From a virus (Monodnaviria > Loebvirae > Hofneiviricota > Faserviricetes > Tubulavirales > Inoviridae): a stretch of DNA of 7,473 nt. Of this stretch, positions 1,666 to 7,473 are shown in pieces; the first letter of the stretch is position 1, and the number at the start of each line of letters is the position of its first letter. A program made the position numbers and the translations under genes. The stretch is from positions 1 through 7,473 of IMG/VR virus record IMGVR_UViG_2671180847_000001, one strand, 5' to 3'. The notes below the pieces were generated by a model that saw only the letters and a program-made list of their open reading frames with translations, ran no database searches and was not told the DNA's origin.

Positions 1666-1698
1666 GGTGCGCATAATGTGCTACACGTTATGTTGAAA
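1666..1698 (+). other. dif: dif-like XerC/XerD recombination site, hybrid/degenerate (putative prophage left attachment junction)
   Basis: GGTGCGCATAA (1666-1676) is identical to the 11-bp XerC-binding arm of E. coli dif. It is followed by an 11-nt spacer TGTGCTACACG in place of the canonical 6-bp TGTATA, then TTATGTTGAAA (1688-1698), which matches the XerD arm TTATGTTAAAT at 9 of 11 positions (first 7 identical). The dif consensus is from memory. Confidence 0.6.
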
Positions 1699-1699
1699 A

Positions 1700-1736
1700 G
1701 GCCGCTGCGAAAATAGAACACCGCAGCGGCCTTTTT
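1700..1736. terminator. Bidirectional rho-independent terminator-like hairpin
   Basis: Perfect 10-bp stem GGCCGCTGCG (1700-1709) / CGCAGCGGCC (1722-1731), 12-nt loop, followed by TTTTT on the plus strand (1732-1736) and by TTTTC on the minus strand (complement of 1695-1699). Placed between the hipBA operon end and the convergent minus-strand cargo operon (stop at 1767). Confidence 0.55.
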
Positions 1737-1766
1737 ACACATAACGTCATTGTGCGCAGTAGTGCA

Positions 1767-1973
1767 TCATCCAAGCCATCTTCCTAGACTTAGTTTGTTG
1801 TTTATTGCCCTGATAGCGGCTAATACTAATGCAGCAATTACCATCGTTTTTCCGGTTTCAAGAGAAAATAGGCTTATTAGTACACCAGACCAAAACAAAA
1901 TAATGCTCCATAAGTTTGAATAATATTCAATATTCGCAAATATTATATCTTTTATTTCAATATCTTTATTCAT
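1767..1973 (-). CDS. Hypothetical small membrane protein (68 aa, two predicted transmembrane helices); second gene of the cargo pair
   Basis: ORF MNKDIEIKDIIFANIEYYSNLWSIILFWSGVLISLFSLETGKTMVIAALVLAAIRAINNKLSLGRWLG. Two hydrophobic segments (about residues 21-38 and 44-57). Shine-Dalgarno AAGGAG 6 nt upstream of the ATG (complement of 1980-1985). The ATG (1973-1971) overlaps the stop of the upstream gene (ATGA overlap). AT-rich. Confidence 0.6.
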   Translation of the reverse strand: MNKDIEIKDIIFANIEYYSNLWSIILFWSGVLISLFSLETGKTMVIAALVLAAIRAINNKLSLGRWLG

Positions 1974-2380
1974 ATAAATCTCCTTTTTGATACAAACAAA
2001 GGGTCTACTTGATAGATTAAAGGTACCTCTTCACAGCATTCTATGTCTAAGGCTAATGTTTCTGCTTTTAGTGCATCATTGAATATTAATGCATCTCTTA
2101 GATTTTCCGTCCACTCTATCTCATGTGATTGTTTTTTATGAAAAATTCTCACTTCCTTTAAAAACATACCATTGTCTTTATTTCTTACGGCCCATGCCAT
2201 GGCATTTTCCATAATTATGTTCCTGAATTCGTCTTCTGTGAGTGAACCTTGTATTTTCCCTTCCATTTCATCGATTCTGAATGCAATGTTCTCTGACACT
2301 TCATCTGTTTTTACCACTTTGTATTCTTTGATGACTCTGAAAGCTTCCCTGTATTTCCCGTCATCATCTGACCAAAACAT
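1970..2380 (-). CDS. Hypothetical acidic cytoplasmic protein (136 aa); first gene of the cargo pair
   Basis: Start chosen at the internal ATG (2380-2378; MFWSDDDGKYREAFRVIKEYK...) of the 1970-2500 ORF because a strong Shine-Dalgarno AGGAGGAGG lies 4 nt upstream (complement of 2385-2393), and the longer N-terminal extension runs through a GC-rich hairpin cluster. No family recognised by eye. Confidence 0.6.
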   Translation of the reverse strand: MFWSDDDGKYREAFRVIKEYKVVKTDEVSENIAFRIDEMEGKIQGSLTEDEFRNIIMENAMAWAVRNKDNGMFLKEVRIFHKKQSHEIEWTENLRDALIFNDALKAETLALDIECCEEVPLIYQVDPLFVSKRRFI

Positions 2381-2445
2381 AATACCTCCTCCTGACTTTT
2401 TGCCTCTCTTGTCCCAGATGTTGCATGCTGTTGTGCTCAAAATTT

Positions 2446-4752: not shown

Positions 4753-4776
4753 AGAGGGGCTTTGTGCCCCTTATTG
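4753..4776 (+). terminator. Rho-independent terminator-like hairpin downstream of the major coat gene
   Basis: Stem AGGGGC (4755-4760) / GCCCCT (4766-4771) with loop TTTGT, followed by TATTGATG. Ff-type phages carry a terminator just after gene VIII. Confidence 0.5.
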
Positions 4777-4815
4777 ATGTATGAATGAATATGTTTTTTA
4801 CTTTATTTGCTTTTT

Positions 4816-6114
4816 ATGGGGGCTTTTATGTGCGTGGGCCGTAATCAAGGGTTTGGATGGCTGATTATCTTCTTACTGTTATTTTCATCATATGCGCATA
4901 GTTTTTTACCTCTTCTGGCGAGAAGTGCCATAGGAGGGGTTGTTGGTCGTGTTATAGCTTCCCGAGCAGCTGCTGTTGCTGCCAATGATGCTGTTTATTT
5001 AACTGTAGTAAGTAATACATCCCGTTCCTTAGCTACATCAGCTGCATCAAAAGCTTCATCGATTGTTTCCAGTGGCTTTTTCAAGACAACCTCTAATGTT
5101 CTTACATGGGGAGGCATAGGTTATACCATGGGAACTATAGGTCATGATGATTTGGTTCCTGATGGCGTTAGCGTTGATGAACAGGGAAATTATTTTATTA
5201 AAGGTAATGGCGGAGGTTCTGTTATTGTAGTTGATAAACCATCAAATGATTATCCTTATTATATTATGTATGGCGGAAAATATTATTATGGATTTAGTAA
5301 GAAAGCTGTTGCTCAAAATGTTTTTTCATTAATGTCTTCATCAGGTGAAATTAGATGTGGCTTCGGATGGGAGTGTACTGTAACTAAGATCCTTTCTGTT
5401 ACTGAAGGTGGCCTTGGGGGAATTAATATTAATTTCGAAGCTATTCGTAAATCTGATGGTTCTACAATTAGTGATACAGAAACTTTCCATGTTAGTGTTA
5501 ACGGAGAATATCATGGCGTTATCCCGGAAGAGGGCATTGAAGATGAAAAGGATCCTGTAAAGGTAGGGCAATACATTTCTGATAAATTATCAGAGTTAAA
5601 ACTTGATTTGGATACATTGGCAAAAACAATTAATGCTGTCTGGATGGATGCTGCATCAAAGCCTGATTATCAGGGGGTGCCATTTTCCTCGTCAAACCCT
5701 GTTACTGTTGATGAAATAAAATCCGTTGCTCCTGATGTGGTTAATTTAAAACAGCAAGAGTGGATTAAACCCGCACAGGTTAATGCTAATTCACCTGTTG
5801 AAATTACTGTGAAAGGAACTTCAGATATTCATGTGGATTTAGGTGACGATCCGAAAGTAACAGCTCCTGATTTAGCTGAACCGCCAACAGGAGAAACAAT
5901 ATTAAAGCCGATTGTGAATCTTTTGCCATTTGTCAAAAACATGAGTATACCCGTCAGGGATGCACAATGCCCTGTATGGAGCTTTCACGTTTGGGATAAA
6001 GATTATCATATAGATACTCATTGTATTCTTATTGAAAAAATTGCCCCACTATTAAAAACATTCTCCTTGTTGTTGTGGGGGATATTATCATTACGTATTA
6101 TTCTGACGGCATAA
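4816..6114 (+). CDS. Putative adsorption/minor coat protein (pIII-like)
   Basis: Large ORF after the major coat gene with an N-terminal signal-like hydrophobic segment (GFGWLIIFLLLFSSYAHS), a short Gly-rich stretch (KGNGGGS), several Cys, and a C-terminal hydrophobic anchor (IAPLLKTFSLLLWGILSLRIILTA). Start ambiguous (TTG 4807, ATG 4816, ATG 4828 with a G-run upstream). Confidence 0.65.
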   Translation: MGAFMCVGRNQGFGWLIIFLLLFSSYAHSFLPLLARSAIGGVVGRVIASRAAAVAANDAVYLTVVSNTSRSLATSAASKASSIVSSGFFKTTSNVLTWGGIGYTMGTIGHDDLVPDGVSVDEQGNYFIKGNGGGSVIVVDKPSNDYPYYIMYGGKYYYGFSKKAVAQNVFSLMSSSGEIRCGFGWECTVTKILSVTEGGLGGININFEAIRKSDGSTISDTETFHVSVNGEYHGVIPEEGIEDEKDPVKVGQYISDKLSELKLDLDTLAKTINAVWMDAASKPDYQGVPFSSSNPVTVDEIKSVAPDVVNLKQQEWIKPAQVNANSPVEITVKGTSDIHVDLGDDPKVTAPDLAEPPTGETILKPIVNLLPFVKNMSIPVRDAQCPVWSFHVWDKDYHIDTHCILIEKIAPLLKTFSLLLWGILSLRIILTA

Positions 6115-6124
6115 GGTGATTTCT

Positions 6125-6412
6125 ATGTTCGGCATTTTAGTTTCAGCATTTAATACTGTTCTTGGTTTTTTATTACGCACCGCTGTTATTAAATTTATTA
6201 TTTTTTTCTCCCTTTATTTTATTGTGCAAGCATTTATTCCTGTCTTAAATGCATTGCTGCCAACAAACATTGACTTTATATCAATGTTTAATTCATTGCC
6301 TGATAGTGCATGGTATTTTATAAATATATTTGCTGTTACTGATGGTATTAAAATTATGCTTAGTGCGTATTTAACTCGATTTATTATCCGAAGAATTCCG
6401 GTTATTGGTTGA
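6125..6412 (+). CDS. Putative minor coat protein (pVI-like), hydrophobic
   Basis: 95-aa strongly hydrophobic ORF immediately after the pIII-like gene. Shine-Dalgarno AAGGTGA (6113-6119) 5 nt upstream of ATG 6125; the ORF track begins at GTG 6116. Position and size match gene VI. Confidence 0.65.
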   Translation: MFGILVSAFNTVLGFLLRTAVIKFIIFFSLYFIVQAFIPVLNALLPTNIDFISMFNSLPDSAWYFINIFAVTDGIKIMLSAYLTRFIIRRIPVIG

Positions 6413-6423
6413 TTAGGTGATTT

Positions 6424-7473
6424 ATGGCTATTTCTGCATATGTTGGTATTCCGGGAAGTGGTAAATCTTACGAAGTTGTGTCCAGTGTTATTATTCCTGC
6501 ATGTATGTCTGGACGTAGGGTAATCAGCAATATTTATGGCTTGTCTGCTGAAGGTATTTATGATTTTTGCATAAGGACTAAAAAGGCATCCGGTAATAGC
6601 TTAGGTGAAATTATCCTTGTTTCAAATGACGATGTTAAAAATGAAAAATTTTTCCCTTATAAAACAGATGATGGTATTTCTGAGGACTCTTTTTGTAAAG
6701 CAGGCGATTTAATTTGTATCGATGAATCGTGGCGTATATGGGAAAATGATAAAGCTATCCCGGCAAATCATCGCTCTTTTATTGCGGAGCATCGTCATTT
6801 CGCTAGTGAACTTACAGGGATAACCTGTGATTTAGTGGTCATGAATCAGTCTGTTGCAAATTTGCCGCGTTTTATAAAAGACAGAATAGAAACGACTTAC
6901 AGAATGACGAAACTCGTTTCTCTCGGGCTACGTAATCGGTATCGGGTTGATGTTTTTACCGGAATTAAATTATTTAAATCGAATTTAACTGTTAGTTATC
7001 AGTGTAAATATGATAAAGCCATATTCCCCTTGTACAAGTCACATGAGAACGGGCAGGGGAAAGAACTTGTGGTTGATACCCGCCAGAATATCTTCAAGTC
7101 ACCAAAACTGTGGTTTCTGGTATTGTTTCTTTTTATCTTAACCTTTTGTTCATTATATTATTTGTATTGGTTTTTCAACACAAGCATGGGAACGACTGAA
7201 AAAACAGAAAGCGAATCAACTCAGTCGCCATTAATGGTTTCAGATATGAAAGGAACTGCCCAGGCTTATTCCCCGAAGAATCAACCAGATTTATCTTCAG
7301 AATGGCGTATTGCTGGTCGCTTTTCCAAAGATGGTAAGAGCTGGATTATTCTTGCAGATAGTTCAGGAAGATTACGTATTGAGCCATCTTCACAGTTTAA
7401 TTTTGATGGTCTGATGGTTACCGGAGAACTGGACGGACAGCGAGTAACAATTTATTCAGGGGTGTTAAAATGA
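6424..7473 (+). CDS. Phage assembly ATPase pI (Zot-family, P-loop NTPase)
   Basis: 349 aa. Walker A GIPGSGKS (residues 8-15), Walker-B-like LICIDESWRIW, a single transmembrane segment (LWFLVLFLFILTFCSLYYLYWFF) and a periplasmic-type C-terminal domain. Shine-Dalgarno AGGTGA 3 nt upstream. Motif pattern parallels CTXphi Zot and M13 pI as I recall them. Stop codon is the last 3 nt of the window. Confidence 0.9.
   Translation: MAISAYVGIPGSGKSYEVVSSVIIPACMSGRRVISNIYGLSAEGIYDFCIRTKKASGNSLGEIILVSNDDVKNEKFFPYKTDDGISEDSFCKAGDLICIDESWRIWENDKAIPANHRSFIAEHRHFASELTGITCDLVVMNQSVANLPRFIKDRIETTYRMTKLVSLGLRNRYRVDVFTGIKLFKSNLTVSYQCKYDKAIFPLYKSHENGQGKELVVDTRQNIFKSPKLWFLVLFLFILTFCSLYYLYWFFNTSMGTTEKTESESTQSPLMVSDMKGTAQAYSPKNQPDLSSEWRIAGRFSKDGKSWIILADSSGRLRIEPSSQFNFDGLMVTGELDGQRVTIYSGVLK

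Follow-up and report, generated by a model that had tools for sequence, protein, structure and literature searches.

The filamentous phage CTXphi is the reference for integration by single-stranded DNA (ssDNA) at dif: its substrate is ssDNA, catalysis by XerC alone is needed, and the reaction is irreversible (PMC4246890, PMC3089051). Of its two attachment sites, attP1 has a spacer of 12 nt (PMC3089051 Table II) and attP2 one of 5-7 nt; the XerC arm is identical to that of the host dif, TGT is all that is shared centrally, and integration regenerates one functional dif while leaving two non-functional sites (PMC3089051, PMC4246890). Known double-stranded XerCD sites have spacers of 6-8 bp; in the VGJ type, attP is a single 29-bp site in which 7 bp separate the arms, and CTX attP1, with its 12-bp spacer, reportedly does not work as double-stranded DNA (dsDNA) (PMC4246890, PMC3089051). 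CUS-1 and Ypf, classed with the CTX-type elements (PMC3089051, PMC4246890), are about 99% identical in nucleotide sequence to each other over 7.1 kb (PMC4266046). Here we consider a filamentous prophage in the dif site of Escherichia coli, the left part of which lies in a 7,473-nt stretch of DNA (IMG/VR record IMGVR_UViG_2671180847_000001, positions 1 to 7,473; the whole stretch is called “the window” below). It probably integrates as CTXphi does, through a folded single strand.

An original prediction from the letters of the window placed the left junction of an integrase-less inovirus in the central region of dif, 76 nt downstream of hipA, and the analysis agrees with it: the XerC arm GGTGCGCATAA begins at 1666, 76 nt past the hipA stop codon (1589). 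There GGTGCGCATAA is followed by TGT and then by phage DNA, such that the sequence reads TGTGCTACACG TTATGTTGAAA instead of TGTATA TTATGTTAAAT, and the GC content moves from about 0.47 to 0.30-0.38. We could not find the canonical 28-bp dif in the window with up to three mismatches tolerated, and the dif core is thus truly disrupted at the left junction. This junction, attL, is at the same time site 1 of the phage attachment region attP (1666-1698, plus strand), with its XerC arm at 1666-1676, the 11-nt spacer TGTGCTACACG at 1677-1687 and the XerD-like arm TTATGTTGAAA at 1688-1698. Except for its left flank it is identical to the episomal or internal junction, …cctgcgcact GGTGCGCATAA TGTGCTACACG TTATGTTGAAA…, the XerC arm being contributed by the host at the crossover.

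The full unit, read in near-identical copies in other E. coli genomes, measures 7,439 bp and holds 12 open reading frames (ORFs); window positions 1666-7473 are the left 78% of this temperate inovirus. In these copies pI is followed by a 420-amino-acid (aa) pIV secretin (PF00263, phrog_1012), a 50-aa ORF (orf50) and the attachment region. The original prediction had raised the possibility that a secretin gene and a right junction lie beyond the window in an intact element, and both do, the right junction being a perfect dif. In all eight long contexts that were read, the left junction consists of host flank, GGTGCGCATAA and phage spacer, and the right junction, 7,439 bp downstream, of the phage flank tacctgcgcact and a perfect dif. 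Counting further reads, this layout of the two junctions was seen at 10 or more independent loci. The lack of an integrase extends to the whole unit: no recombinase or integrase domain was found among the 12 ORFs with Pfam and PHROG profiles, which leaves host XerCD as the only visible route of integration.

A second dif-like site is present in inverted orientation about 35 nt beyond site 1 (window 1760-1734). This site 2 (1734-1760, minus strand) reads ACTGCGCACAA TGACG TTATGTGTAAA and has a 5-nt spacer. Site 1 has a perfect XerC arm and a XerD arm with two mismatches to dif. A scan of the phage genome returned the inverted pair, with its 11-nt and 5-nt spacers, and no dif-like site in which the arms are 6-8 nt apart. 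In the central region the XerC-side TGT is all that is common with dif, the bottom strand on the XerD side being CGT here and TAT in dif.

As ssDNA, the gene-sense (+) strand of this region is predicted to form one long bulged hairpin (-41.9 kcal/mol, z = -9.3), a stability reached by none of 200 shuffled sequences. In the predicted fold the two XerC arms pair together, as do the two XerD arms; the first two (TG) and last three (ACG) bases of the spacer are paired, and the six site 1 bases TGCTAC bulge out. The fold is capped by a GC-rich hairpin at 1696-1735, composed of AAAAGGCCGCTGCG, a 12-nt loop and CGCAGCGGCCTTTT, which form a perfect 14-bp inverted repeat with A-runs and T-runs on its flanks. 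Because such runs flank it on both strands, the apical hairpin is probably a bidirectional terminator as well, one that would end transcripts of the cargo operon and any read-through arriving from the left. Promoter and terminator scans of the window gave counts no higher than expected by chance; the terminator scan missed this hairpin because its 12-nt loop exceeds the 8-nt limit. A scan of the window against Rfam gave a single sub-threshold chance match.

Whether site 2 is more than a chance match was examined by comparison. An alignment was made of 12 attP regions, from the window phage, the prophage of strain UTI89, both copies in EC4, the phages of JNE23, 300709, Rosenbergiella, Lelliottia, Pectobacterium and Gilliamella, and two phages from saliva metagenomes. 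In all 12 a site with a long spacer precedes an inverted site with a short one, and the same bulged hairpin is predicted. Pairing covers 92% of the cells of the alignment and falls to 26-48% when the partners are slid; compensatory changes occur at 11 of 33 pairs, against 1-4 with slid partners; none of 500 shuffles reached the observed values of pairing and compensation. Compensatory changes also preserve the apical helix in the two saliva phages and that of Gilliamella. A covarying fold in 12 phages with inverted sites therefore favours integration of the CTX type, carried out by host XerCD on folded (+) ssDNA, a reading to which we give a probability of roughly 0.8.

The steps would be as follows. 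In the packaged gene-sense (+) strand, site 1 (GGTGCGCATAA, 11-nt spacer, TTATGTTGAAA) would anneal with the inverted site 2 about 60 nt downstream of it, and the bulged hairpin so formed would offer the recombinases a single XerC arm together with a single XerD arm. XerC would swap one pair of strands with dif at the border between XerC arm and central region, stabilised by the shared TGT, and because the XerD side is without homology to dif the resulting pseudo-Holliday junction would be resolved by replication. The product attR would be a regenerated perfect dif, open to further copies. Neither attL, with its 11-nt spacer, nor site 2, with its 5-nt spacer, should be usable as a double-stranded XerCD site, and XerCD would be unable to excise the prophage. 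Rolling-circle replication rather than excision would supply new genomes, with pII nicking the hairpin element at 2458-2503 in one copy and terminating at the next tandem copy. By analogy with CTXphi we infer the ssDNA substrate, catalysis by XerC only and irreversibility; the nick site of pII and the production of virions are likewise proposals.

The likeness to CTXphi extends over the whole arrangement. Both lack an integrase, target dif and carry two inverted dif-like sites (spacers of 12 and 5-7 nt in CTX, of 11 and 5 nt here). In both, the XerC arm equals that of the host dif and only TGT on the XerC side is homologous; both restore a perfect dif at one end, form tandem arrays and have a regulator gene that is read divergently from the replication gene. 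The two phages differ in other respects: there is no protein similarity in the proteins compared, the sites lie about 35 nt apart in the window phage and about 90 in CTXphi, the window phage encodes its own secretin, its regulator is a 67-aa protein without a helix-turn-helix (HTH) instead of RstR, and its cargo consists of two ORFs beside attL instead of ctxAB. No CTX or RS1 phage record came up in the DNA search or among the 30 pI matches listed.

A double-stranded replicative form might instead recombine with dif as in VGJphi, through site 1 alone and with XerC acting first, the intermediate being resolved by replication and site 2 being a remnant or part of a terminator. In favour of this route, a dsDNA partner would account for the junctions equally well, site 1 matches dif perfectly in the XerC arm and at all but two positions of the XerD arm, and the apex of the hairpin resembles an ordinary bidirectional terminator. 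However, the 11-nt spacer falls outside the 6-8 bp of known double-stranded XerCD sites, the single attP of about 29 bp with a 7-bp spacer was not found in the genome scan, and site 2 and its pairing are kept with compensatory changes in 12 divergent phages, which would be unexplained if the site had no function; we regard this route as unlikely. The central region bears on a further possibility, an exchange of the TLCphi type that is initiated by XerD, independent of FtsK and driven by a phage-encoded Xer activation factor. TLCphi likewise targets dif without an integrase, and its class takes in several filamentous phages from outside Vibrio. Yet here the central region shares only the XerC-side TGT with dif, the XerD arm is well conserved rather than degenerate, and no ORF matches Pfam beyond the inovirus core, with no XafT-like factor seen, although small ORFs such as orf50 are uncharacterised; we give this mode scarcely any credence.

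Several points weigh against the CTX-type reading itself. The junction sequences, taken alone, fit integration of ssDNA and of dsDNA equally well, and the individual steps are carried over from CTXphi, the evidence at this locus being of sequence only. Site 2 is the most degenerate of the set, with three mismatches to dif in each arm, and was missed at the first scan threshold. The covariation of the XerC arms may partly reflect both sites tracking the dif of each host. Single-copy lysogens exist (loci L023, L024 and L029), and from these the model predicts no phage production. Finally, the one circular form seen, a separate 7,439-bp circular record with 12 genes that accompanies the chromosomal copies in the assembly of strain A37, is 100% identical to the chromosomal tandem copies; it could be an assembler product of the repeat and is not proof of an episome.

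The arrays add observations on how copies arrive. Tandem copy number ranges from 1 to at least 4 across the loci read, and phage-phage junctions within an array read …cctgcgcact GGTGCGCATAATGTGCTAC…. Polymorphisms in the XerC arm bear on the site of the crossover. At locus L029 the left arm has GGTT (5243-5253) and the right arm GGTG (12683-12693); in the related phages of JNE23 (L009, 13661 versus 22103) and 300709 (L010, 13666 versus 20996) the leftmost arm has GGTG and the internal one AGTG. The variants sort as expected for a crossover at the border of XerC arm and central region, with the host type at attL and the phage type at internal and right positions. In L028 (GCA_902859345.1) the tandem copies at 5243-12681 and 12682-20120 differ at about 39 substitutions and therefore represent separate, sequential integrations rather than a duplication.

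Distribution was assessed by megablast of the window against 5,426 complete E. coli genomes, with presence of the element defined as coverage of at least 80%. Positions 1-1665 are near-universal chromosome, the flank being found in 5,335 of the 5,426 genomes, and positions 1665-7473 are found in four. In public assemblies the exact pI sequence occurs in 581 blocks, in 303 of which the longest contig that carries it is only 5-10 kb, and the 420-aa secretin follows pI in every locus read. These many phage-sized contigs and the A37 circle are indirect signs of virion production. That so rare an element is found in diverse backgrounds, next to right flanks that differ, suggests recent spread by horizontal transfer. 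Across many strains the ORFs are equal in length and all 12 are intact.

These data also address whether the element is an inactive relic, that is, a fixed defective prophage whose tandem copies arose by unequal homologous recombination and whose circle is an assembly artefact. The identity of the A37 circle with the chromosomal copies would be expected of such a relic, and deletion derivatives and remnants do occur (the 1.8-kb element of A37 and a 337-bp remnant at locus L030). Against this stand the 12 intact ORFs of equal length in many strains, the rarity of the element (4/5,426 complete genomes) in varied backgrounds with different right flanks, and tandem copies some 39 single-nucleotide differences apart, which cannot stem from duplication; a relic is thus quite improbable. 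We conclude from the sequences that the dif site of E. coli here holds a genuine inovirus prophage that is intact and probably active.

Three smaller structures were seen at dif in the course of this comparison. The A37 array opens with a 1.8-kb deletion derivative (L002, 13665-15484), next to which stand two full copies; in the derivative a segment with attP, the cargo, the origin-like element and a shortened regulator gene is joined directly to orf50 and the 3' end of pIV, and as the derivative keeps the putative origin it could behave as a satellite-like mini-element. At 12682-13046 of L030 a phage-type junction and 133 bp of left-end phage DNA stand 337 bp before a perfect dif; this piece is what is left either of a second copy or of some other Xer element. 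In JNE23-001 (L009) an extra dif-like site, AGTGCGCATAA GATATATGCCG TTATGTTGAAT, is located at 21957-21989, 146 bp upstream of the internal phage-phage junction.

The original prediction had proposed that the element may belong with CUS-1 and Ypf. CUS-1 was compared through the dif prophage of UTI89 as a stand-in, its identity with CUS-1 being presumed from serotype and location. We take UTI89 to be an O18:K1:H7 strain; no paper linking UTI89 to CUS-1 was found in the literature searched. CUS-1 and YpfPhi (CUS-2) share with the window element the host site, dif downstream of hipA, and the gene order, including a variable two-ORF cargo slot beside attL; they have an intact dif at the 3' end, and tandem arrays are reported for Ypf. 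The UTI89 prophage has the same CTX-type attP, 91% identical in nucleotide sequence over 92 bp; elsewhere the DNA similarity is confined to short patches at 67-74%. At the protein level identity to the window element is 72% for pVIII, 56% for pVI, 55% for pIV, 48% for pI, 40% for orf74 and 38% for the C-terminal part of pIII, whereas pII, pV, the HTH/RstR-like regulator and the cargo of the UTI89 prophage have no similarity to their counterparts. Unit sizes differ as well: 7.4 kb for the window element, 8.7 kb for Ypf and 9.6 kb for the UTI89 prophage. Since CUS-1 and Ypf are 99% identical to one another and the window element has diverged, it is not a member of the group in the strict sense. 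Identity with CUS-1/Ypf, judged on the stand-in, in which only attP and short patches match, thus had to be given up; a common mechanism and module ancestry are retained, on the grounds of the same attP type and related assembly genes. None of the findings speaks to the link with virulence that the original prediction mentioned for CUS-1 and Ypf. Phages of the UTI89 type are present in 84 of the 5,426 complete genomes, against four for the type in the window.

The protein clusters of the UTI89 prophage have no Y. pestis member among the 15 listed, and neither Yersinia nor E. coli was represented among the results when contigs were scanned with pII. Lack of a secretin, at first considered a feature of CUS-1/Ypf-type phages, was dropped as a distinguishing character since a secretin gene is present in the UTI89 prophage. 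On E. coli plasmids there are 499 places that match parts of the UTI89-type prophage, at 90-95% identity.

The replication and regulation module is shared with If1 (Infulavirus), with 80-82% aa identity in pII, 84-86% in pV, all 46 positions of the origin-like element and a regulator homologue at 39%. No close relative is present in the phage database; in a DNA search of it If1 was the only match, in the replication region, over 20% of the query at 76% nucleotide identity. Yet a scan of If1 gave no dif-like sites, it is not known to integrate, and its structural and assembly genes have no detectable similarity to those of the window element; with similarity confined to the replication and regulation module, membership in Infulavirus was rejected. 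As If1 shares pII, the regulator and the origin-like element, this module is common to a non-integrating phage and to dif prophages. The If1 record (L005, NC_001954; 5061-5310 and 7440-8432) shows that its “major intergenic region” contains an unannotated minus-strand ORF (39% identical to the 67-aa regulator) and the copy of the origin-like element, and that “ORF320”, annotated as hypothetical, is the bulk of pII, 82% identical to that of the window.

UPphi elements, inoviruses of E. coli and other Enterobacterales, are also found in tandem at dif and, like the window element, have variable reverse-strand ORFs beside it. Their core genes are about 70% identical at the aa level to those of IKe and I2-2 (Shapiro & Putonti 2020, PMC7307601). 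The window element has no IKe-like core, only pIV matching IKe (30%), and identity with UPphi, for which UPphi901 was compared by description, was rejected. The best assembly-gene matches in the phage database are two uncultured phages from gut and oral samples, “Dulem virus 52” and “Inovirus D_HF5_61” (50-51% aa identity in pI, 50-51% in pIV, 42-45% in pVI). They too carry a CTX-type inverted pair of dif-like sites; they differ in their replication proteins, have XerC arms (ATTTCGCATAA) that fit other hosts, and are available from metagenomes only. The assembly module as a whole (pVIII, the C-terminal half of pIII, pVI, pI and pIV) is 30-54% identical to the modules of other dif prophages of E. 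coli and of uncultured inoviruses from gut and oral samples. The sequence comparisons indicate that the element is a mosaic of an If1-like replication module, a morphogenesis module related to that of the presumed CUS-1 of UTI89 and a two-gene cargo of its own, and that its lineage is neither CUS-1/Ypf, UPphi nor If1; no name for the lineage was found in the literature searched.

Turning to the genes themselves, calls were made from the ORF list with Pfam and PHROG profile matches. The chromosomal flank outside the element carries hipB (1-267, plus strand) and hipA (267-1589, plus strand), both also annotated in RefSeq in identical genes; the adjacency to hipBA merely reflects where dif is always located in E. 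coli. Within the element the order II-V-(74 aa)-VIII-III-VI-I-IV is the conserved inovirus order, and the inovirus-type gene content that had been recognised from the letters alone holds up, with Pfam or PHROG matches for pII, pV, pVIII, pVI, pI and the protein in the pIII position. The genes from II to I lie on the plus strand. Gene II (2856-3971) encodes a 371-aa rolling-circle initiator (PF05155, 2e-25; PF05144; phrog_702, 9e-104) that is 72-91% identical to pII of other E. coli dif prophages, and is followed by gene V for a 96-aa ssDNA-binding protein (3988-4278; phrog_8473, 2e-39). The ORF next to it, orf74 (4287-4511; phrog_3679), has a C-terminal hydrophobic segment and is 40-53% identical to syntenic ORFs of the UTI89, EC4, 300709 and Kluyvera phages; its position and composition make it a candidate minor coat (tip) protein. 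Gene VIII (4526-4744; PF05356 Phage_Coat_B; phrog_2186) specifies a 72-aa precursor of the major coat protein, at 72% identity to its counterpart in the UTI89 phage.

The adsorption protein in the gene III position (4828-6114, 428 aa) matches phrog_3942 (6e-82) on residues 194-428; this C-terminal half is conserved, with 27-38% identity to relatives, and for the N-terminal stretch of about 190 aa no relatives were detectable. Gene VI encodes the 95-aa minor coat protein pVI (6125-6412; PF10734 DUF2523; phrog_974), and gene I the Zot-family assembly ATPase pI of 349 aa (6424-7473; PF05707, 1.6e-24), whose stop is the last codon of the window. Gene IV, for the secretin, starts at 7470, its body lying beyond the window.

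A putative (+) origin of replication, assigned from conservation and an IKe-like architecture, is located at 2458-2503 (plus strand). Its first hairpin has a 7-bp stem, GTTCGGG and CCCGAAC, around the 11-nt loop GTTCTGTGACA; after TTT a second hairpin follows, formed by ACCGTGG, TTT and CCCACGGT. The layout is that of the annotated viral-strand origin of IKe, in which a stem-loop with 11 nt in the loop is likewise followed at once by a second hairpin. This 46-bp element is identical at 46/46 positions in If1 and the Lelliottia phage and at 45/46 in the Alteromonas phage phiAFP1 (L022, 15-60), despite a phiAFP1 pII that is only 51% identical to that of the window; variants that compensate within the stems occur in EC4, Kluyvera, Izhakiella and a Pseudomonas cerasi prophage. 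It occurs only alongside the window-type pII family and is absent from the UTI89 phage, whose pII differs. Conservation of this kind suggests that 2458-2503 is probably the (+) origin, with the nick and binding site of pII, and its position to the right of attL fits the model of replication from tandem copies. A further copy of the 46-bp element was seen at L017, 3642-3687; overall the element hardly varies among phages of E. coli, Alteromonas and Pseudomonas, although their pII proteins are only about 50% identical.

Divergently from gene II, a 67-aa protein is encoded at 2523-2726 (minus strand; phrog_2503, 7e-28). It is 97% identical to a protein of the 300709 phage and 39-78% identical to small ORFs at the equivalent position in If1, phiAFP1-type and other phages; from position and conservation it is probably the phage regulator. 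No HTH domain was matched in Pfam. The AlphaFold2 (AF2) model (mean predicted local confidence, pLDDT, 73) shows an extended N-terminal part and then two helices (residues 13-30 and 36-57), and a Foldseek search of it against the PDB gave no significant match, so that a ribbon-helix-helix-like fold, as opposed to an HTH or RstR-type one, is a guess from the model. The intergenic region between regulator and pII (2727-2855) contains TGCAT/ATGCA motifs (catgcatg, ttgcata, tatgcatg, ttgcatc), which could be operator repeats.

Just inside attL lies the cargo, a translationally coupled pair on the minus strand. The gene orf136 (1970-2380, 136 aa) starts at 2380 behind an AGGAGG ribosome-binding site, a longer reading of 176 aa extending into the non-coding origin region; orf68 (1767-1973, 68 aa, annotated as WP_097156357.1) encodes two hydrophobic segments, has the ribosome-binding site AAGGAG, and overlaps the orf136 stop with its start (ATGA). 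Neither protein has a family or match in Pfam, PHROG, PADLOC, NCBIfam or PDB sequences. In the 300709 and Lelliottia phages the corresponding slot encodes proteins 37-40% identical to the orf136 product, which is otherwise a near-orphan among 5.8 billion proteins, the homologue search returning E. coli copies only; its AF2 model (pLDDT 37) is unusable. In CUS-1-type relatives the slot next to attL holds a TIR-domain protein (E. coli DEC5E, L031, 2603-4154) or, in others, PD-(D/E)XK nucleases. The two EC4 copies (L019, 213-1289 and 9215-10547) have a 358-aa ORF or DUF2971 with MltR there. Such varied genes mark the attL-adjacent slot of E. coli dif inoviruses as a cargo hot-spot. It is speculation that the orf136/orf68 pair serves in defence or exclusion. 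A HigA-family antitoxin gene was seen near the other end of the EC4 phage.

We tentatively propose, as a view that may well need revision, that the element represents an undescribed genus-level lineage of temperate E. coli inoviruses with If1-type replication, CUS-1-related assembly and a secretin of its own, that CTX-style ssDNA integration is common to a broad clade reaching from Enterobacterales to oral metagenomes, and that orf136/orf68 are possibly a defence or exclusion module. No new principle is revealed, inoviruses that borrow host XerCD at dif being already known. These phages occupy a site needed for chromosome dimer resolution, and they can carry cargo for fitness or virulence, CTXphi being the clearest case and modest effects being reported for CUS-1 and Ypf. 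The element widens the list of E. coli dif phages past CUS-1 and UPphi and shows the shuffling of modules between the classical, non-integrating If1 and integrating prophages. The covariation provides comparative evidence that the folded-ssDNA attP, first worked out in Vibrio, is widespread. As a small and apparently intact phage of E. coli, the element offers a test bed for the CTX-type mechanism, the putative origin and the cargo; if the proposed mode of integration is true, CTX-style single-strand integration could be dissected with the genetics of E. coli K-12.

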